A program made the translations under genes and the position numbers. Below the pieces are notes generated by a model. It saw only the letters and a program-made list of their open reading frames with translations, did no database searches and had not been told where the DNA came from. Positions 330 to 11,134 of a DNA stretch of 64,000 bases are shown piece by piece. Origin of the DNA: Bacteroidota bacterium (lineage in GTDB: Bacteria; Bacteroidota; Bacteroidia; AKYH767-A; OLB10); NCBI GenBank assembly GCA_023251535.1, contig JAHEYP010000001.1:288868-352867 (forward strand), written 5' to 3'. Positions within the stretch are counted from its first letter, which is position 1. Each line of letters starts with the position of its first letter.

Positions 330-3300
330 TTATGGACAAGTATGATTAAATTGAGAAAGTAGAATTAAGAAGTCGACATTATTCACCAAACCATTATTAT
401 CTAAATCCTGTGTGCAAGTACAGTTTTGATTAAACAATCCTAATAAAGTTAAGAAGTCGCTATTGTTGGTCACGTTATCATGATTGAAATCGGATACTAA
501 AGCTGGAGTAATATTCACAGGTGTAGAAGTTGCCACACAACCTAATCTAGAATTCGAAACAGTTACACTATACGATTGGATAGAGTCAACTGTAATCGCC
601 TGAGTTGTATCTCCTGTAGACCATAAATAAGTATTATGAGAACCACTCGGAGCAGAAAGAGTTACGCTGCTTCCATAACAAATACTTGTGCTCCCTGAAG
701 GAGTGATACTAGCGTTGTAATTTGAGCAAATATCTAAATCAAGATTTTCAACAATATCAGATCTGAATTTTCTCAATTTATAATCACCAAAATCTTTTGC
801 TTCTACGCTATCTTGATAAAGAATATTAGCTCCACCATCGGTAATAATTTGCAAACTATTGCTTGAAAGTGCACCAGTTGAATCCACACCTTGCATAAGT
901 CCTTCAACATTTAATATTCCTCCAATTGGATTACTGATTAGCAGCGGAGCATCATCTGCATATCCAGACCATTTATACAGATTATTAACTCCTCCATCAT
1001 CAATTGGGCTACCAGCAACAATGATGTAAGTACCATTATTTAAACGAGTGATATCGCGAATTCCTCTGAAATCAAGGTTAAGTTCAATTGGATTACCGAA
1101 TGTTGGATTTCCTGTAGGTGAACCATTATTAAACCATGCTTCAAAATTCAACACAGGCACAATTACTGCGTTATGTCTAAAGTTTGTAGGAACAAGAGGT
1201 GCTCTTAATCCCAAGTACATGGTAGTACTATCAGGTCCTACAACCATTCCCTCTAAAGAGAATCCTGCCATCGCCTTAGAATTAACACCTGCTGCGGCAG
1301 AAGCAGTGAAATTATATCCATTAGCATCACCCCAAGCAAGAAGTGAACTTCTGAAATTATAATATCCTACAAACGTAAAAGAGGTACTATCACCTGTTCC
1401 ATTTATATCAGTAGCAAAGAATCGATCGCGATTAGGTTTATTGTCATAAGGTAATTTTCCATTACTCATAGAACCTGTCCAATAAACGCGATTAGCAATT
1501 TTCATGCTTCTTGTACCTGCTTCAACATCTACTTCAGGTTTTCCAGGATCAGGCAATGCTAAACTAGAAGTGTAGTTATAACTTTTCACTTGTAGACCTG
1601 AATGATGACGAGAATACACATTCAACAAGTTCAATTCATCATCTCCGACTACGTAAAAGTTTTGATCTAATGCTACTGCATCAGAACCATCAGACATACC
1701 CGTATGCCAAAATTCCTTATTTACATTTAAAACAGGATCAGCAGATGAAGCAGCAAAATTTATTACATAAGAAGTGCTCAACAACCCATCAGAAACTGAC
1801 ACAGTAATATTTGAATAACCAACCGCTGTAGGAATAATTTTCACGTTTCTTATTGCACCTAATCCTGAAATAATAACATTTGAATCGGCAACTACGAGTT
1901 GATTACTACTACTAACAGAAAGTGTTAATGAGCTATCACTAGTTTCTATATCACTAATTAAAAAATTAATTCCTTCATGCGCTGCAGGATCAGTTAAATC
2001 TCCAATCACACCGCTCAATCCAAAAGGAGACGGAGAAACTAAATTGCCATTATCAATATAGTTTGAAGTAGAAACATGCATTGAAATTACAGGAGCATTA
2101 TTGGAATCATCGTCAATCAATTTAAGAGATGTAGAAACAACATTTCCTAATTGAATTCCTGTTGAAGGATTACTAATAGTAAATAATGCAATTTCTGTTC
2201 CTTCATCAGTTGCATCATTAACTACAGTAAATGACACACTACCTGAAGTTGCTCCATTAGGAATCAATATTGTTGTATCACTTAAAATATAATCACCGGA
2301 TGTAATTCCTAGTCCACTAATTGACAACTTCACATATTGGTTTCCTATTACTGGGGCCGAAGAAGTTGCTATAATATTAACAATACTAGAAGTTGATTCG
2401 AATGCAGAGTCTTTACTAGCTGAAAGCGTTACAGTAGGAATACCGGTTTCAATTGGAGAGAATGAAATTCCTTTATTAAATACTCCTACTGTTGCAGGAA
2501 CTATTGTTGTTGCTGTAGAACCTACACCATTATCAATTATTTTAACAACTCTATTACCTGTGGTTTCAAAAGTAGTTGCATAAATTATTGGAGATGATTG
2601 AGTATAATCAACAATAATACCATAAGCACCAATATTACTTGCACCTGTACCTAATGTATAAGCAAGAGACCATGTGCTACCAGACATAATCCACTTTTGA
2701 ACACCACCAGCAGAAGTATTTAAATTTACTGCTATATAGCAAACATCTAATGAAGGATTAAATGAGAAATCTTCAGGGATAATTGTTCCAGTATTTATTA
2801 CTTGAGAAACCGTTACGCTACCCGACGTAGGAAGTCCGCCACTTAGTTTAAAGATTCCTAATTGAGAAGCTGTATTCGAAGGGCCAGCTTTTTGTGTTGA
2901 ATAATAAATCTCGCCATTAAAAATTCGAATGCCGTACGACTTTGGCGGAACAGCACCTGTTGCTAATCCTATTTGTGTTCCTGGACCAAAATAATTTATA
3001 CCATCTACATTAGCTACTGATGCTCCTGATGCCCAAAAGTTTGTTCCGTCAGAAACACCACCTCTAATATCATTGAGATTGTAAAACAAATTACTTGTAG
3101 CAAATGGAACATACGAACCTGAGGCTGTAACTTTTCCAATTACTCTTGGCACGGTTGAGGAAGTTGTTCCTGTAATATCTGCGAAAGATGCTGATGTATT
3201 ATAACCCGAAACAACTAAATACTTTCCATCAGTTGATGTAGTTAAAAATCCTTCAGATCCACCATAAACACCTGCAGTTTGAATTGCGTTAACTCCTGTA

Positions 3301-6152
3301 GAAGGTAGAACAACAGAAGCTCCTTGAGCACCAGTAACAGAATACTCTTTTAAAATAATAGGAGAAGATGATTTGCTTACAGTAGTATTTGTTTGAAGTA
3401 CCACTAAATTTCCTGCAGAAAAACTTGATGAATTTACAACTATGTTTATTGTTCTTGCGATACTTGCTCCACAATTATTAGTTGCAATTACACTTAAAGT
3501 TCCACCTGTAGCGCTTAAAGAAAAATCAATAGCAATACTACTCGAGCTACCAATAATTGTTGCACCGGTTCCTGAATAACTCCATGTATATGTTACAGAC
3601 GAATCTGCTGGAACAGAATAAATCACACCTGATTGTCCAGGACTAACAAATGAACTGCTTTGTATGAATGAGCCAGGTTGATTTGCAATAGTTTTTACAT
3701 TAACATGAACAGCGTTCGATGTTTTTGCACAAATTCCTTGAGCAATTACTGCATAATAGTCACCCGATTGCTTAACAACTATTGAACTAGTCGTATCACC
3801 ATTCGACCATAAGTAACTAAATCCAGAAGGTGCTTGAAGCATCACTGAATCACCATTACAAAAAGTTAATGAACCTACAATATTAATTGTTGCAGGTATC
3901 GATATTACATGAATTGTATCGTTTAAAGAACTTACTAATGAAGAAGTAACGCACGATTCAGACGAAGTCATGGTGCAATAAACTATTGTGCTATCAGTAA
4001 ACAAACTATCAGTATAGTTAAGGGAATTATTACCAACTGGCAAACCATTCTTATACCATTGATATATCGGAGTCAACCCACTATTCAATCCTTGAGCTGT
4101 AAAAGTAATAGTAGTACCCTCACAAATATTCAATGGTTTATCAGCTGAAATTTGCACAGACGGTTGTACTAATGATTTTACTACAATTGAAATTGTATCA
4201 GATGAACTTATGCAACCAGATCCATTATTAACTTGAACAGAATAATTTCCTGAAGTTAAAACAGTAATGCTTTGAGTAGTATCACCTGTAGACCATAAAT
4301 AGGTGCTTCCCAATGATGAAGTAAGAATCGTTGAATCACCTTGACAAAAACTTAATGGTCCGCTAGAAGAAATCGTAGCAATACCACTACTAATATGAAT
4401 TGTATCACCAATCGAACTAATAATAGCTTGTGAAATACAGCTAGCATTAGAGGTAAGTGTACAGGTAATAACATCCCCCTCTATTAGAGATGAAGAAGAG
4501 AAGGTTGAACTAGAACCAACTGAGACACCATTGACCTTCCAATCATAGCTTGGGGAACTTCCTCCGTTCGACACTTGGGCTGAAAAAACAATATTCGTCC
4601 CGTTACAAATAGAGAATCCAGGATTCGCCAAAACAGAAATGGAGGGAGTAACTATTGGATTAACATTTACAATTACATTATTTGAAGTAGATGAACATCC
4701 AAATGCATTTGTAACAACAACCGAATTATCACTTGATGTATTTACTTTAATTGATGAACTTGTATCGCCATTTGACCAGAGATTTGAGTTTCCTGAAGTA
4801 ACTGATAAGATCACTGAATCTCCTTGACAAAAACTCAGTGGCCCAGAAGCTGTAATAATAGAGCTAGGAGTCGCATTAATAACAACTGAAGTTGTTGTTG
4901 AAGTTGTTCCGCACAAGTTCGTAACTGTTAGTGAATAAACACCGGTACCAGCTTCAGCAACTTGACTAATAGAAGGTGATTGTAAAGAGGAAGAAAACGA
5001 GTTTGGCCCTGTCCAAGCATATGTTAATGGAGAGGTTCCGGATATGTTACTTGTCAAATTCAATGTAGTACCACTACACAATGGAGTATTTGAACTAATT
5101 GAAGATATGGTAGGTGCTGTACAATTTGTTTTTGGAGCAAAAGCTATACCTTTTATTATACCACTATTTGAAAGAGTATAAAGCACTAAATTATTCGCTG
5201 TAGTAATACTAATATTAGAGTTATAGCCTGCAACATCTGTAAGTTTAACTACCTTATTGTTAACAGTAGCTCCTGTTCCGCTTGTTACAAAAATGTCAGA
5301 ACCTACAGTTTGCTTTTTTGCGCAGATACCAAATCCACCAAAATTTGTTGTATAAGTTGAGTTATCTACCCAAACACCACTCACTAAAGAGTATTTATGA
5401 ATTACTCCTACAGTAGCCGAAGTACTCTCAAGAGTATATAAGATATCAAACTGTGAGCCATTTGCACCGGAAGAAACCAAATAAAAATCTTGGAAAGTAG
5501 CATTATTTGTAAGGCCAGGCAATCCAGTAATTGTTCCAGGAGAAATAGCATTAACAGTATTAACGCAAATAGAAGTAGTTGTTGAACTTTGTATTCCTAC
5601 ATAAACAGTTCCTCCAAACGATTTCGCTGCTCTTAAATTAGCTACAGTGATTGCCGCAGTTGAATTATTAGTGTATAAACCTCCCTGATCGGCAATAAAC
5701 CAATTCGAATTATCTAATGATGTTGCGCCACGTGTTTGGTTTCCGGAAGTGCCTGTGTAACTTGCTGCAATAGACACTGCGTATGAAGGAGAAATTGCAG
5801 CAACTACTCGAGGATTTAGCGTATTTGCATTGGAAGTTGAGTTGGTGTTATTCACTCCCGTAAATTCTAACAATGAGCCATCATTTGAATTAGCTAAATA
5901 ACATGTTGAGGTAGCACTTCCTGAAACCCTTATTGCATTTGCACCTGTACCACTAATATTTAGTGAGTTCACTGGTGTTGTATTTGAAATAGAAGGATTA
6001 ATTTCAAGTATACTTGCCGTAGTATTTGAAGCACTTGCAGCTGCTACTACAATGGCAAGATTACCCGGAGTAAAAGATTGGGCAAAGGATTGGGATGTGA
6101 CACTCAATAAACTACTTAATAATAAAATTAGAAAACTTAGTTTGTTTTTCAT
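330..6152 (-). CDS. Giant secreted multidomain protein (~1940 aa): two 'FT/SxGNLxV...GIxFxP' domains, Ig/PKD-like repeats, Calx-beta, cadherin-like, DUF3616-like domain and C-terminal dockerin-like EF-hand pair
   Basis: Signal peptide MKNKLSF...SFAQ (ATG at 6152 preferred over TTG at 6176). Repeated 'GPLSFCQGDS..YLWSTG' Ig units. Calx-beta-like 'GDY...SGSVSFTVVNDATDEGTE...IDDD'. DUF3616-like 'VVGDDE..DVEAG..YWTGS..LEGM..LGLRAPL..GIRDI'. Tail DFNHDNVTNNSDFLTLL / DLDNNGLVNNVDFLILL. Confidence 0.8.
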   Translation of the reverse strand: MKNKLSFLILLLSSLLSVTSQSFAQSFTPGNLAIVVAAASASNTTASILEINPSISNTTPVNSLNISGTGANAIRVSGSATSTCYLANSNDGSLLEFTGVNNTNSTSNANTLNPRVVAAISPSYAVSIAASYTGTSGNQTRGATSLDNSNWFIADQGGLYTNNSTAAITVANLRAAKSFGGTVYVGIQSSTTTSICVNTVNAISPGTITGLPGLTNNATFQDFYLVSSGANGSQFDILYTLESTSATVGVIHKYSLVSGVWVDNSTYTTNFGGFGICAKKQTVGSDIFVTSGTGATVNNKVVKLTDVAGYNSNISITTANNLVLYTLSNSGIIKGIAFAPKTNCTAPTISSISSNTPLCSGTTLNLTSNISGTSPLTYAWTGPNSFSSSLQSPSISQVAEAGTGVYSLTVTNLCGTTSTTTSVVINATPSSIITASGPLSFCQGDSVILSVTSGNSNLWSNGDTSSSIKVNTSSDNSVVVTNAFGCSSTSNNVIVNVNPIVTPSISVLANPGFSICNGTNIVFSAQVSNGGSSPSYDWKVNGVSVGSSSTFSSSSLIEGDVITCTLTSNASCISQAIISSIGDTIHISSGIATISSSGPLSFCQGDSTILTSSLGSTYLWSTGDTTQSITVLTSGNYSVQVNNGSGCISSSDTISIVVKSLVQPSVQISADKPLNICEGTTITFTAQGLNSGLTPIYQWYKNGLPVGNNSLNYTDSLFTDSTIVYCTMTSSESCVTSSLVSSLNDTIHVISIPATINIVGSLTFCNGDSVMLQAPSGFSYLWSNGDTTSSIVVKQSGDYYAVIAQGICAKTSNAVHVNVKTIANQPGSFIQSSSFVSPGQSGVIYSVPADSSVTYTWSYSGTGATIIGSSSSIAIDFSLSATGGTLSVIATNNCGASIARTINIVVNSSSFSAGNLVVLQTNTTVSKSSSPIILKEYSVTGAQGASVVLPSTGVNAIQTAGVYGGSEGFLTTSTDGKYLVVSGYNTSASFADITGTTSSTVPRVIGKVTASGSYVPFATSNLFYNLNDIRGGVSDGTNFWASGASVANVDGINYFGPGTQIGLATGAVPPKSYGIRIFNGEIYYSTQKAGPSNTASQLGIFKLSGGLPTSGSVTVSQVINTGTIIPEDFSFNPSLDVCYIAVNLNTSAGGVQKWIMSGSTWSLAYTLGTGASNIGAYGIIVDYTQSSPIIYATTFETTGNRVVKIIDNGVGSTATTIVPATVGVFNKGISFSPIETGIPTVTLSASKDSAFESTSSIVNIIATSSAPVIGNQYVKLSISGLGITSGDYILSDTTILIPNGATSGSVSFTVVNDATDEGTEIALFTISNPSTGIQLGNVVSTSLKLIDDDSNNAPVISMHVSTSNYIDNGNLVSPSPFGLSGVIGDLTDPAAHEGINFLISDIETSDSSLTLSVSSSNQLVVADSNVIISGLGAIRNVKIIPTAVGYSNITVSVSDGLLSTSYVINFAASSADPVLNVNKEFWHTGMSDGSDAVALDQNFYVVGDDELNLLNVYSRHHSGLQVKSYNYTSSLALPDPGKPEVDVEAGTRSMKIANRVYWTGSMSNGKLPYDNKPNRDRFFATDINGTGDSTSFTFVGYYNFRSSLLAWGDANGYNFTASAAAGVNSKAMAGFSLEGMVVGPDSTTMYLGLRAPLVPTNFRHNAVIVPVLNFEAWFNNGSPTGNPTFGNPIELNLDFRGIRDITRLNNGTYIIVAGSPIDDGGVNNLYKWSGYADDAPLLISNPIGGILNVEGLMQGVDSTGALSSNSLQIITDGGANILYQDSVEAKDFGDYKLRKFRSDIVENLDLDICSNYNASITPSGSTSICYGSSVTLSAPSGSHNTYLWSTGDTTQAITVDSIQSYSVTVSNSRLGCVATSTPVNITPALVSDFNHDNVTNNSDFLTLLGLFNQNCTCTQDLDNNGLVNNVDFLILLSQFNHTCP

Positions 6153-6667
6153 TGAATTAGAATTTTGGTCCGACAAAGTACCTTCTTTAAATCGCTATTT
6201 AAATTACCGTTCATTTAAAGAATCATTAACCTATTTACAGTTTAATGTTATCTAAAACCAAAAAAATCATTAACACTCAAGAAAAATCGGAAGGCAAACA
6301 ATAGGCAAAATATTTTTCATGTTTTTACCGATGGGAATATTTCGCCAACTATACTAGGTTCGTGGCCCATAGAAAACCTTTAATAAAATGACCACACAAA
6401 ATATCAGAAGTATTCGATGCCTTAACATTAATTCACATTTCAAAGCTACATTAACTAATTGTTATTTCATTTCGACAGGATAGCTTTTTACTAATCTAAA
6501 CTACTTACCCCCTAACTTTAATTAGTTTTTCAGCTACGTATTGTGTTTGTTTCATCTTTAAAGATAGGACGAAGGTTACATTTACGCATAACATCATTTT
6601 TCGCGATAAGTCATTCGATAGTTTTACTTCGATTTCAAACTAAATCGAACATAAAAACTATCATAAA

Positions 6668-7699
6668 ATGAAAAAACAATCTCTACTCCTAACCTTCGCG
6701 TTACTTGTATTCTCGATAGCCGCAAAAGCCACTGTCATAACAGTATCTAATAGTCCAATTTCAGGCGGACAATATACGGATGCGCAAACTGCTATTAACG
6801 CTGCATTAGTTGACGATACTATTTATTTACATGGTTCAGGAATTTCTTATGGAAATCTTACTATTACCAAACGCATAACATTAATAGGCGCAGGATATAA
6901 TCCAACGGGTACACAGTTCGTACAGCCTACGATAGTTGGATCAGTTTCGTTAGACACCGTAGCATTTACTAATCCTGTAAGTGGATTACATATCATCGGA
7001 ATACAAGCGAACGACTTTTCGACTTACAATCCTATTAACAACGTACATTTTGAAAGATGTGCAGGTACGTTTAATTATGTGAGAGGGGACGGATGGATTG
7101 TTGAGCATTGCATTATTTATTCTTTTTATTGCTTTAGCACACCATTTAGCAGCAGAATACTTCGCAATAATATTATCTACGGTAGTGGTGCAATTAGTTT
7201 CAACGGAGCAACAAATGGTGCAGGAATGTTGATTGATCATAATATTATTCAAGGCACTATCAGTTACCTTCAATATGCAGTAATTACAAATAATGTTTTT
7301 ACTTTTAGTGGAATAGCCAATTCGGCTGGAAACTCTTTTAATACATATAACAACAATATCACTGTAAACACAGTTCCCGATGCGATTCCTCTAACAAATA
7401 ATTCAGGAAGCGGTAATATCAACAATGCTAATCCAGCAACAATATTTATTGGTAACGTAACTTCAGCACAAAGCTATCCGGCGTTACTTAATGTTAACTG
7501 GCACCTCACTCCTACTTCACCTGGACATAATGCTGCTACCGATGGAACTGATGTTGGTATTTATGGTGGAGCTAATCCGATGCTGAATTTAACTGGTGCT
7601 TCAACACTTCCACAGATGACAGAGTTGAATATTCAAAACCCAAGCTTACCAGTAAACGGAACATTGAACTATCAATTCAAAGCTCGCAAGCAGAATTAA
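6668..7699 (+). CDS. Secreted right-handed parallel beta-helix (pectin-lyase-like fold) protein, no T9SS CTD
   Basis: Signal peptide; 'YTDAQTAINAA..DTIYL..YGNLTITKRITLIGAG' beta-helix cap; NN-rich coils; 'SPGHNAATDGTDVGIYGG' closing motif. Confidence 0.8.
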   Translation: MKKQSLLLTFALLVFSIAAKATVITVSNSPISGGQYTDAQTAINAALVDDTIYLHGSGISYGNLTITKRITLIGAGYNPTGTQFVQPTIVGSVSLDTVAFTNPVSGLHIIGIQANDFSTYNPINNVHFERCAGTFNYVRGDGWIVEHCIIYSFYCFSTPFSSRILRNNIIYGSGAISFNGATNGAGMLIDHNIIQGTISYLQYAVITNNVFTFSGIANSAGNSFNTYNNNITVNTVPDAIPLTNNSGSGNINNANPATIFIGNVTSAQSYPALLNVNWHLTPTSPGHNAATDGTDVGIYGGANPMLNLTGASTLPQMTELNIQNPSLPVNGTLNYQFKARKQN

Positions 7700-7728
7700 T
7701 CAATTTCATCTGACAAAAATATGTTCAT

Positions 7729-8997
7729 ATGAAAAAGATCATTCAAAAATGGAGTATTCTGCTGATGATACTTTCAGCATACTCCGGCTACGGACAACAG
7801 ATAAATCGAGGGGAATATTTTATCGATACTGATCCCGGTGTAGGTAATGGTACTGCCATAACAATTACTTCTGCCGATTCTGTTGATATTTCGAGCAGCA
7901 TCAATTTAACGGGAATAAGTCCCGGATTTCATACACTGCACGTACGTGTGCGATACAATAATACAGGCATACGCGAATGGAGTTTATTCGAAGGTCGCAG
8001 GTTTTATATCAACCCGTCTTCTAACGGTAGTGCATCACCGCAAGTTGTCGCAGCTGAACGTTTCATTGATACAGATCCGGGGTTAGGAAACGGGACGCCT
8101 ATCAATACAGGTGCAGCTGCCGATTCAATTACAAAATCTGCAACATTAAGCACTAACGGATTGGCACCAGGATTTCATCATTTATTCGTTAGAGTAAAAG
8201 ATGCTTCAGGCAAATGGAGTTTATATGAGCCTCGCGTTTTTTATATTATTCCTCCTTCTACTGCGAATCAAGCTCAAATTGCTTCGGCAGAATATTTCTT
8301 TGATGTAGATCCGGGCTTGGGCAACGGGACGTCTGTTGCAACAGGAGCAAATGCCGACTCAATTAATATTTCTTCAACTGCATCAATAGCGGGATTAACA
8401 GAAGGATTTCATCATTTCTTTGTTAGAGTAAAAAGCACTGATGGCATCTGGAGTTTATACGCTGCGCGAAATTTTTACATCAATGCTTCTGGAACAATTG
8501 TAAGCGCTCAGATATCAAATGCTGAATACTTCTATGATACCGATCCGGGAGAAGGCAATGGAACAGCTGTTACTCCATCTTTCTCTCCTGCAGATTCAGT
8601 GAATATTTCCGCCAATACTGTAGTCACAGGATTAACACCCGGATATCATTACATGTTTGTTAGAGCACAAGACCAAGATGGAAAATGGAGTTTGCCGGTT
8701 TCAGATACTTTATGGATCGGTACTGCGGGCATAAACGAATTGGTAGCTAATACTAATGTTAATTTGAGTCCGAATCCTGTTCAATCATCTTGCATTATTT
8801 CATATCATGGAGTTCAACCGAATTCCTATTTAAAATTATGCGACCTTTCAGGAAGAGTTGTTTACAATGAAAGCCTCCAAGGACAAGAAGGCAAACAATT
8901 TATCACATTACCCGAACTAGCCAATGGAGTTTATTATTGGACTACCTACAGCGGATATAAAAATTCTGCCAAAGGAAAAATAATAGTCGCACATTAA
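7729..8997 (+). CDS. T9SS type A sorting-domain protein with four 'EYFxDxDPGxGNG' Ig-like repeats
   Basis: Signal peptide. Four repeats of 78-81 aa (Glu codons at 7813, 8056, 8290, 8524). C-terminal 'LSPNPV...DLSGRVV...LANGVYY...KIIVAH' CTD. Confidence 0.85.
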   Translation: MKKIIQKWSILLMILSAYSGYGQQINRGEYFIDTDPGVGNGTAITITSADSVDISSSINLTGISPGFHTLHVRVRYNNTGIREWSLFEGRRFYINPSSNGSASPQVVAAERFIDTDPGLGNGTPINTGAAADSITKSATLSTNGLAPGFHHLFVRVKDASGKWSLYEPRVFYIIPPSTANQAQIASAEYFFDVDPGLGNGTSVATGANADSINISSTASIAGLTEGFHHFFVRVKSTDGIWSLYAARNFYINASGTIVSAQISNAEYFYDTDPGEGNGTAVTPSFSPADSVNISANTVVTGLTPGYHYMFVRAQDQDGKWSLPVSDTLWIGTAGINELVANTNVNLSPNPVQSSCIISYHGVQPNSYLKLCDLSGRVVYNESLQGQEGKQFITLPELANGVYYWTTYSGYKNSAKGKIIVAH

Positions 8998-9080: not shown

Positions 9081-9584
9081 TTATTGCTTATACCCTATTT
9101 TTCTTCTAGGCTTTTCCTCTTGAATAAGTAATTGCTTCACCATAGAAAATACATATTGAATTTCTTTGCTATGATCACTTAGTTGATTTTCTATTTTTTC
9201 GATTTTATAAAGTATATCTTTTTGAGAGGTTAGCATTTCCCTCATCTTAACGAACACATCAATAATTCTGATACTTACTTGAATTGCCACTTCGCTTCTC
9301 AATACATTAGAAAGCATCAATACTCCATGTTCGCTAAAAGCATAAGGAAGATATTTTGAATGAGCTCCTTGTTTTAAGGTCGCAAATTGCGACCTTAAAA
9401 CAAGGTATTCCTCTTTGGTCAGTTCAAACATAAAGTGAGAAGGAAACCTGCTGATATTTCTTTTCACTTGCTCCTTTAAACGTTTCGTTTCCACGCCATA
9501 CATATCTGCTAAGTCACTATCAAGAATCACCTTAACGCCTCGGACATAGCGAATCTTACGAATAATTATTTCTTCAGGTATCAT
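9081..9584 (-). CDS. ORF6N domain DNA-binding protein
   Basis: 'IRYVRGVKVILDSDLADMYGVETKRLKEQVKRNISRFPSHFMFELT...LRSQFAT...LPYAFSEHGVLMLS...RKIGY' is the typical stand-alone ORF6N pattern. ATG 9584 is preferred because it avoids overlap with comM. Confidence 0.85.
   Translation of the reverse strand: MIPEEIIIRKIRYVRGVKVILDSDLADMYGVETKRLKEQVKRNISRFPSHFMFELTKEEYLVLRSQFATLKQGAHSKYLPYAFSEHGVLMLSNVLRSEVAIQVSIRIIDVFVKMREMLTSQKDILYKIEKIENQLSDHSKEIQYVFSMVKQLLIQEEKPRRKIGYKQ
9367..9405. repeat. Perfect 39-bp inverted repeat inside the ORF6N coding sequence
   Basis: CCTTGTTTTAAGGTCGCAA-A-TTGCGACCTTAAAACAAGG (19-bp arms, 1-nt spacer). Confidence 0.95.
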
Positions 9585-9595
9585 ATTCTTCTGTT

Positions 9596-11134
9596 TTACC
9601 CTGCCCATCCGTCGCGGTCGAGACTCCTATATAAAATCGCCTCGGCTAAGTGCTCTGTCATTATATCCTCACTATTTGCTAAATCGGCAATCGTTCTTGC
9701 GACCTTTAGAATTCGATCATAAGCCCGAGCTGATAATCCCAAGCGATCCATTGCCGTTTTTAACATCTCATTACTTTCATTATTGATCTTGCATACCTTT
9801 CGCAGCATCCTCGACGACATCTGAGCGTTGCAATAAACACCTTCCATTCCTTCAAATCGCCTTTCCTGAATGATTCTAGCCCCTACAACGCGTTCTCGTA
9901 TACTACTGCTACTCTCAGAGAGTCGACTTTTAGAAAGCTCGCTAAAAGGCACAGGAATCACTTCTACATGCAAGTCGATGCGATCGAGCAATGGCCCTGA
10001 TAAGCGATTAAGGTATTTCTGAACGACACCTGGAGCGCATACACATTCCTTTTCGGGGTGATTGTAAAATCCGCATGGACAAGGATTCATACTCGATACC
10101 AACATAAAACTTGCTGGATATTCTACTGAAAACTTCGCGCGCGAGATGGTTACTTTTCTTTCTTCTAAGGGTTGACGCATCACTTCGAGAACGGTGCGTT
10201 TAAACTCCGGAAGTTCATCAAGGAATAATACTCCGTTGTGAGCAAGTGATATTTCCCCCGGCTGCGGATTACCTCCACCTCCTACCAATGCAATATCGCT
10301 GATGGTATGATGCGGTGATCGAAACGGACGCGTTGTAATTACGCCTCTATGCTTCGCGACTTTTCCGGCTACCGAATGAATCTTTGTTGTTTCGAGTGAT
10401 TCCTCTAAAGTGAGGGGCGGTAGAATAGTAGGAAGTCGTTTTGCAAGCATCGTTTTACCTGCTCCTGGAGGTCCAATTAATATTACATTATGTCCGCCTG
10501 CAGCTGCAATTTCTAAAGCGCGTTTAATATTTTCTTGGCCTTTCACATCCGAAAAATCGAATTCGATTTCTTGCTGATCACGTACAAACTCTTCTCGGAT
10601 ATCCACCACCGTTAGTTGTGTATCATAATGCCCTTCGAAGAAGTTAATTACCTCTTGCAATGTTTTCATTCCGTAAACTTCGAGCCCTTGTACTACTGCT
10701 GCTTCACGGGCATTCTCTTCAGGCAAAATGATTCCTTTGAATCCGTCGTTTTTCGCTTGCACAGCAATGGGCAATGCTCCACGAATAGGAAGCAGATGTC
10801 CGTCGAGCGACAATTCACCCATAATGATATAATCATCAAAATTAGTTGCCGCAATTTGCTCCGATGCAGAGAGTATACAAAGAGCAATCGGCAAATCATA
10901 AGCCGAACCTTCCTTGCGAATATCGGCGGGAGCCAAGTTGATTACAATACGTTTCCCGGGCCAACGATAGTTGTTCGTTTTCAAGGCAGCCTCGATCCGC
11001 TGCTGACTTTCTTTGATGGCGTTATCGGGCAAACCGACCAAAAAAACTTTTACGCCATTGGTCATGTGCACTTCAATTACAATATTGATAGCCGACACTC
11101 CATTGAGTGCGCTTCCATAAGCTTTAACAAGCAT
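9596..11134 (-). CDS. comM: YifB/ComM family Mg-chelatase-like AAA+ ATPase
   Basis: '[11 protein letters not shown]', '[20 protein letters not shown]', Walker A GPPGAGKT, 'RPFRSPHHT', 'LFLDELPEF', 'MNPCPCG', 'SGPLLDRID'. Confidence 0.95.

Follow-up and report, generated by a model that had tools for sequence, protein, structure and literature searches.

In chaperone-usher pili and in the type V pili (FimA/Mfa1) of the Bacteroidota, donor-strand complementation or exchange lets an incomplete immunoglobulin (Ig)-like unit be completed, in the periplasm, by strands of another polypeptide (for background, see PMC4789730). Here we describe two adjacent genes, gene 1 and gene 2, which may apply a comparable principle to the export of a surface protein. 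They lie in a 64,000-nucleotide stretch (hereafter the window) of the Bacteroidota bacterium assembly GCA_023251535.1 (contig JAHEYP010000001.1, positions 288,868 to 352,867, forward strand). Gene 1 encodes a probable beta-helix that ends in a short C-terminal tail, and gene 2 a type IX secretion system (T9SS) cargo protein, composed of tandem repeats and a C-terminal sorting domain (CTD). The gene pair is a widespread, near-obligate module of the Bacteroidota, and the link between the tail and the repeats is real. We suggest that the tail may dock onto the repeats, and that the beta-helix may hitchhike through the T9SS on the carrier that gene 2 encodes.

The likeness to pili proposed here has clear limits. 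In pili, polymers form as one strand is donated from subunit to like subunit, with the help of a chaperone and usher or of proteolytic priming, whereas here the two-strand tail of an unrelated beta-helix would be accepted by repeats of a T9SS cargo; searches of gene 1 and gene 2 against Pfam and NCBIfam returned no pilin, usher or chaperone family. The cohesin-dockerin scaffoldins of cellulosomes and amylosomes offer another proposed parallel, in that tandem acceptors on a carrier hold terminally tagged passengers for multivalent display at the surface. However, cohesins and dockerins have no sequence relation to either gene (Pfam matches to them are absent from gene 1, gene 2 and the single repeats), their fold and binding mode would differ, and anchoring would here proceed via the T9SS CTD. 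In Tat hitchhiker co-export and in peroxisomal piggy-back import, a folded protein without a signal is taken across a membrane by binding to a partner that has one, as we propose for gene 1, but in our case the membrane would be the outer one and the signal a C-terminal domain. Judged by these comparisons, the module would belong to none of the pilus, cohesin-dockerin or Tat hitchhiker families and would resemble them in its proposed mode or function only. When both genes are set beside the T9SS type A CTD cargo themselves, gene 2 has the sequence and the fold of that class, and gene 1 does not.

The consulted passages of the review PMC9251779 count the T9SS among the transporters of folded proteins and do not describe piggy-back export by this route. 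Our own search of the literature, with supplements and subscription journals outside its scope, likewise found no description of the gene pair or of T9SS piggy-back.

A near-obligate gene pair in the Bacteroidota

The pairing was assessed across 401 sampled genomes of the phylum, with gene 1 called strong at E<1e-25 and the repeats of gene 2 called at E<=1e-5. A strong gene 1 occurs in 44 of these genomes and the repeats in 46, and 42 genomes carry both. Several of the genomes that carry the pair are complete, single-contig ones. Gene 1 stands alone in two genomes, one of which has divergent repeats directly downstream (G243), while the other carries a tail-less variant of the gene (G198). Among the four genomes with repeats only, the repeats of two (G123 and G010) have directly upstream of them a divergent beta-helix gene whose end is tail-like, and in the other two (G113 and G220) the repeats sit at contig ends.

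The association extends to gene order. A repeat-bearing open reading frame (ORF) lies directly downstream of gene 1, on the same strand, in 27 of the 29 loci examined in 29 genomes; the same holds in G237, with the repeats at aa 545-930 of the downstream product, and the locus of G198 is the tail-less one. Ten further loci are also paired, so that every resolvable tail-bearing locus (39/39) lies directly upstream of a repeat-bearing ORF. Conversely, 52 of 55 clusters of repeat ORFs lie directly downstream of a gene-1 match, according to coordinates read by hand. The earlier note on this DNA had offered strict co-occurrence of the two genes as a check on its proposal, and whichever gene is taken as the starting point, the other nearly always accompanies it.

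At four loci (L013, L016, L048 and L051), one repeat partner follows a tandem pair of gene-1 paralogues. At L051 a third gene-1 copy lies past the partner, and at L013 the proximal copy has an in-frame TAA inside its tail. The genome that contains the window itself encodes a second, divergent module, which is one of the ten further loci (L039, on G000 contig C11). It consists of a 418-aa ORF (4772-6025, minus strand), with a very weak match to gene 1 and a tail-like end, and, directly downstream, a partner of 805 aa (2335-4749, minus strand) with four 'EYFWDTDPG' repeats, a PKD_6 domain and a CTD.

The probable beta-helix protein and its tail

Gene 1 carries a hydrophobic leader with no lipobox Cys, and there is no Cys anywhere in the protein; conservation within its family begins immediately past the signal peptide, at 'ATVxTVSN'. 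When searched against Pfam and NCBIfam at E<=1, gene 1 returned no family beyond noise, and no T9SS sorting domain of type A, type B or the CHU_C kind. Relatives of near length number 167. Against 1.84 billion representatives, the gene-1 profile yielded 23232 matches at E<=1e-3, of which 3169 reach E<=1e-30; among the best 150 of these 3169, 147 are 312-390 aa long with a match that reaches the end of the profile, tail included. One relative (P0047) is named a right-handed parallel beta-helix protein by a source, PF13229 (Beta_helix) matches 3 of 36 gene-1 relatives at E<=0.01, although not gene 1 itself, and the nearest named Atlas clusters, taken as feature neighbours, are those of PF13229 (score 0.94). 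On these grounds the body of gene 1 is probably a right-handed beta-helix, to which we assign no activity.

The tail is under selection, being conserved and terminal in nearly all relatives: a hidden Markov model (HMM) of the tail matches 119 of 120 members of the gene-1 family, with matches ending 0-4 aa short of the C-terminus, and all of 36 aligned sequences share the Pro at position 315. Outside the gene-1 family, the sole match of this model is P0121, a protein in which both genes are fused (see below). The possibility that the tail might be a truncated CTD was considered and rejected, since it has no CTD match and since, in the fused proteins, what comes after the tail is a repeat and not the remainder of a CTD.

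The anatomy of the locus given in the earlier note, namely a signal peptide and a CTD-less gene 1 with a 30-aa tail, a spacer of 29 bp, and a gene 2 of repeats and CTD, was borne out together with its coordinates, and the tail sequence is identical to the one quoted there. The observation lies far beyond chance, as both genes belong to large families. In one detail the locus departs from the note: the final strand of repeat 4 diverges.

The proposed carrier and its repeats

Gene 2 encodes T9SS cargo of the type A CTD class. Its CTD, at aa 347/348-420, exceeds the cut-offs of both PF18962 (30.7 bits against 27, E 4e-7) and TIGR04183 (32.7 bits against 23, E 5.4e-8); the model of this domain aligns to solved CTDs (8qb1_A with Z 11.0, rmsd 2.0 and 75 aligned residues, and 8glk_D with Z 10.6); a leader is present, as read by eye; and the genome encodes the T9SS translocon, as seen from its SprA (TIGR04189, 2690 bits). 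PF18962 was found in 10 of 13 complete partners from other loci, as well as in gene 2 and in the partner at L039. The description of the carrier as nothing but repeats plus a CTD, made in the earlier note, fits gene 2 but does not extend to the family, in which partner lengths run from 266 to at least 2270 aa (with open frames of up to 4923 aa) and PKD-like and other domains are present.

The four repeats of gene 2 start at approximately aa 23, 104, 182 and 260, with a period of 78-81 aa; they are 43-51% identical to repeat 1 and share 24 invariant columns. The predicted mature protein begins with Q, 5-6 residues ahead of the first 'EYF', and partners elsewhere have the same layout: among 120 gene-2 relatives, which carry 3-10 repeats each (mode 5), the first repeat lies at aa 15-35, immediately past the signal peptide, in 111. 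Conservation is strongest at aromatic or charged positions (E, Y, F, D, H, R and W). First and middle repeats are indistinguishable, with a Jensen-Shannon divergence of <=0.1 at each column after the first four, while last repeats diverge in their final strand across the family. Each of the four repeats of gene 2 also contains an 'ADS' followed by V or I (at about 7870-7881, 8122-8133, 8353-8364 and 8593-8604), which fits the O-glycosylation sequon of the Bacteroidota, D-[ST]-[AILVMT]; this motif is not conserved in the wider repeat family.

Single repeats matched no Pfam family, and those of the window gave no match to Big_7 (PF17957); PDB sequence searches using profiles of the repeat built from 4 and from 85 rows returned a best E of 0.12. 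What matches there are to Ig-like models tend to start late. The match of gene 2 to Y_Y_Y (PF07495) covers model positions 29-63 of 65, at 21.3 bits against a cut-off of 26.6, and repeats of the family match Big_7 weakly, each match running from model position 26-31 to 70 (of 70), above the cut-off in one partner only (26.2 against 24.1), the sole Ig match to exceed a curated cut-off. Further weak matches are also limited to later parts of the models (Big_13, 49-90 of 102; GbpA_D3, 52-94 of 97; fn3_PAP, 74-112 of 118). Across the 120 gene-2 relatives, all 491 repeat-to-repeat periods measure 69-85 aa, and hence there is no room in cis for two further strands; nor did the tail HMM find a credible match among these CTD-bearing proteins. 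From sequence, then, the repeats appear similar to the final two-thirds of an Ig-like domain, without space for the first two strands, in agreement with the claim of the earlier note that these strands are missing from every repeat.

Natural fusions and a tail-less homologue

The earlier note had also envisaged natural fused forms, and four were found, all in one lineage (P0121, P0258, P0301 and P0313). In each, the beta-helix is followed by the tail, the tail at once by a repeat, and the repeat region by PKD-like domains and a CTD; the number of repeats after the tail is one in P0258, P0301 and P0313, and two in P0121. From 'KAR' to 'EYF', joining the last strand of the tail to the first strand of the repeat, there are 10 residues in P0258, a length close to the 3+6 across the gene split in the window. 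Such proteins place the beta-helix on the exported molecule, and the tail beside a repeat.

The complementary case, of which we have a single example, is found at L041 (G198:C14, 2781-4748, plus strand), where a strong gene-1 homologue of 656 aa has no tail, is fused to other domains and has, by eye, a CTD-like end; the repeat search at E<=1e-5 found no repeats in this genome. An extra segment of this protein resembles, by eye, a concanavalin/LamG-type domain.

Structure models

AlphaFold2 (AF2) gave a mean pLDDT of 38.9 for gene 2 as a single sequence, and this model was replaced by one built from an alignment of 85 sequences, with pLDDT 86.7 and pTM 0.38, in which the repeats are confident beads without fixed mutual packing. 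In repeat 1, strands are assigned at 25-32, 42-44, 66-78, 81-84 and 88-94, with 45-65 unassigned as strand; according to DSSP, each repeat in the model has approximately four paired strands and a segment of about 20 aa without strand partners. The CTD, which is as long as one repeat, has seven strands at 344-420. Foldseek with the whole gene-2 model matched only generic tandem-Ig arrays, and a wide structure search (VIA) with the same model gave matches only for the CTD.

Prediction of a complex between aa 23-340 of gene 2 and aa 22-343 of gene 1, both supplied as alignments, scored 0.41, 0.29 and 0.50. In the controls, replacing the partner gave 0.00 and 0.00, and replacing chain 1 gave 0.33, missing the set mark; the scores weigh neither for nor against binding.

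Docking, hitchhiking and the alternatives

We propose the following sequence of events. Gene 1, which has no T9SS signal of its own, would be exported by Sec to the periplasm. Its tail would serve as a docking tag that binds the repeats of gene 2, probably by adding two strands to the sheet of the repeat, and the beta-helix would then leave the cell through the T9SS as a passenger on the CTD-bearing carrier, at whose CTD-distal, N-terminal end it would sit. It is plausible that a carrier takes on more than one beta-helix, because first and middle repeats are indistinguishable, and it is this equivalence that would allow all four sites of gene 2 to be occupied. We infer binding, the geometry of strand addition, stoichiometry, co-export and the role of the beta-helix alike. 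Docking combined with hitchhiking is in our opinion the best reading of the module, one that we consider evenly poised between standing and falling. A fuller version, in which natural split-Ig docking is widespread in the Bacteroidota, a two-strand C-terminal tag of about 30 aa completes each of 3-10 strand-deficient N-terminal repeats in varied T9SS cargo, and CTD-less beta-helices, in some cases several paralogues, hitchhike outward for multivalent display on the distal tips of surface-anchored stalks of 266 to >2000 aa, is possible but doubtful.

A number of observations weigh against docking. The repeats fold in AF2 without the tail, mostly at pLDDT 85-95, and may be complete, stable domains in their own right; seven strands can fit into a unit of 77 aa, as the CTD shows. 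The tail, for its part, may just cap the beta-helix of gene 1. Matches of the repeats to Ig models fall nearly all under the curated cut-offs and span parts of the models rather than their full length, and Pfam searches of the four fused tail-plus-repeat segments yielded no Ig model that spans the tail. If each repeat needs a tail, one gene-1 product must fill 3-10 sites. L018 and L051, two of the 13 complete partners, have no CTD match at E<=0.001, and L044 has a FlgD_ig match only. In the 2270-aa partner at L046 (G237:C4, 1549-8358, plus strand) the five repeats are internal, preceded by some 540 aa of N-terminal sequence. Several divergent gene-1 assignments depend on low-scoring HMM matches and on a visual judgement of the tail, and the genomes, all of one phylum, are related and not independent samples. 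Lastly, adjacency and fusion are equally expected of an enzyme and a binding-module partner. The reading of the earlier note is partly supported: near-strict co-occurrence, natural fused forms and the lack of two further strands in cis came out in its favour, and completion of each repeat in trans by the tail stays a proposal, against which the confident folding of repeats without a tail may count.

That last expectation is the basis of the most serious alternative, which we regard as rather unlikely: gene 1 might be a beta-helix enzyme or binding protein and gene 2 a surface protein with ligand-binding repeats, the two being functional partners without docking, with the tail a cap, and with synteny and fusion arising from a shared pathway. 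Fusions of enzymes with binding modules are common, and besides folding alone with confidence, the repeats have their conserved aromatic and charged residues on both faces of the sheet (as read from strand alternation), as in binding modules, and show a weak, non-significant resemblance to the carbohydrate-binding module of a mannanase (PDB chain 2bgo_A, E 0.16). Yet a CTD-less gene 1 would then remain periplasmic, whereas the fusions have the beta-helix on an exported chain. This alternative also leaves unexplained the retention of the tail in all but one of 120 family members, its absence from the one strong homologue that has its own CTD-like end and a genome free of repeats, and the position of the repeats at the mature N-terminus, right after the gene of the tail, in nearly all loci. 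The fusions bear on stoichiometry as well. Exactly one repeat follows the tail in three of the four, and at most loci the first repeat begins at the mature N-terminus, so that the gene boundary resembles a clean cut between two strands; the tail might hence bind one repeat only, as one half of a 1:1 split domain, with the remaining repeats acting as spacers or ligand binders. We deem this unlikely, since first and middle repeats cannot be told apart beyond the first four columns, split partners carry several repeats, and tandem gene-1 paralogues share a single partner.

The Sec signal of gene 1, its want of a CTD, the obligate adjacency and the strand-poor appearance of isolated repeats in AF2 would also suit a periplasmic chaperone or maturation factor, which would hold or modify the repeats ahead of T9SS transport, in the manner in which the chaperones of chaperone-usher systems hold pilins by strand donation, and be released at export. 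This we find quite improbable, as all four fusions join the beta-helix covalently to the exported cargo, a beta-helix of 300 aa would be an unusual chaperone, and the homologue that has no tail but a CTD-like end of its own points to a role at the surface.

Should docking and hitchhiking hold, the consequences would be broad. T9SS secretomes are predicted from CTDs alone, and if CTD-less riders exist, a whole class of surface proteins has been missed; the gene-1 family by itself, with its 3169 representatives at the stricter threshold, is covered by no model in Pfam or NCBIfam. Among hitchhiker routes this would be the first to be put forward for the T9SS, and strand complementation would gain a new use beyond pili; the 30-aa tag with its 77-aa acceptor could become a surface-display tool in Bacteroidota. 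Were docking to prove wrong, two uncurated families, and a functional link between them that can be tested, would still be defined by the near-obligate pairing.

Features and surroundings of the locus

The coordinates of the module are collected in Table 1. Gene 1 and gene 2 lie on the same strand in different frames. Fusion of the two by readthrough or frameshifting was ruled out by these frames, by the signal peptide that gene 2 has of its own, and by a spacer length that varies between loci; at other loci where a start codon was placed by script, the spacer to the nearest upstream gene-1 copy is <=95 nt.

Table 1. Coordinates of the gene 1-gene 2 module (positions in the window).
Feature	Position	Strand	Description
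Gene 1	6668..7699	+	Sec-exported (predicted), CTD-less, 343 aa; probable right-handed beta-helix ending in tail
Gene 1 signal peptide	6668..6730	+	aa 1-21, cleavage after A-K-A; inferred by reading the sequence
C-terminal tail	7607..7696	+	30 aa; two alternating-hydrophobic segments flanking a P-x-N-G turn; family consensus
Intergenic spacer	7700..7728	+	29 bp, between genes in different frames
Gene 2	7729..8997	+	T9SS cargo, 422 aa; four repeats between signal peptide and type A CTD
Gene 2 signal peptide	7729..7794	+	aa 1-22; inferred by reading the sequence
Repeat 1	7795..8028	+	gene 2 sequence comparison and AF2
Repeat 2	8038..8271	+	gene 2 sequence comparison and AF2
Repeat 3	8272..8505	+	gene 2 sequence comparison and AF2
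Repeat 4	8506..8739	+	last-repeat type, final strand divergent
T9SS type A CTD	8770..8988	+	aa 348-420; PF18962 and TIGR04183, alignment to solved CTDs

The flanking genes are on the opposite strand. Upstream lies the gene of a 1948-aa protein rich in Ig and PKD domains; downstream are those of an ORF6N protein and a Mg-chelatase-like ATPase. The gene pair forms a unit of its own, because its neighbours on both sides lie on the other strand. The 1948-aa protein (330-6176, minus strand) has no CTD match at E<=0.001, and at its C-terminal end carries a duplicated Asp/Asn-rich segment, which by eye resembles a dockerin-like calcium-binding pair. A scan for promoters and terminators gave counts not above those of shuffled sequences and no terminator-like site between gene 1 and gene 2. 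Among the sites from the terminator scan is a perfect hairpin of 39 nt with an 18-bp stem (9367-9405, plus strand), which lies within the ORF6N gene (9081-9608, minus strand).

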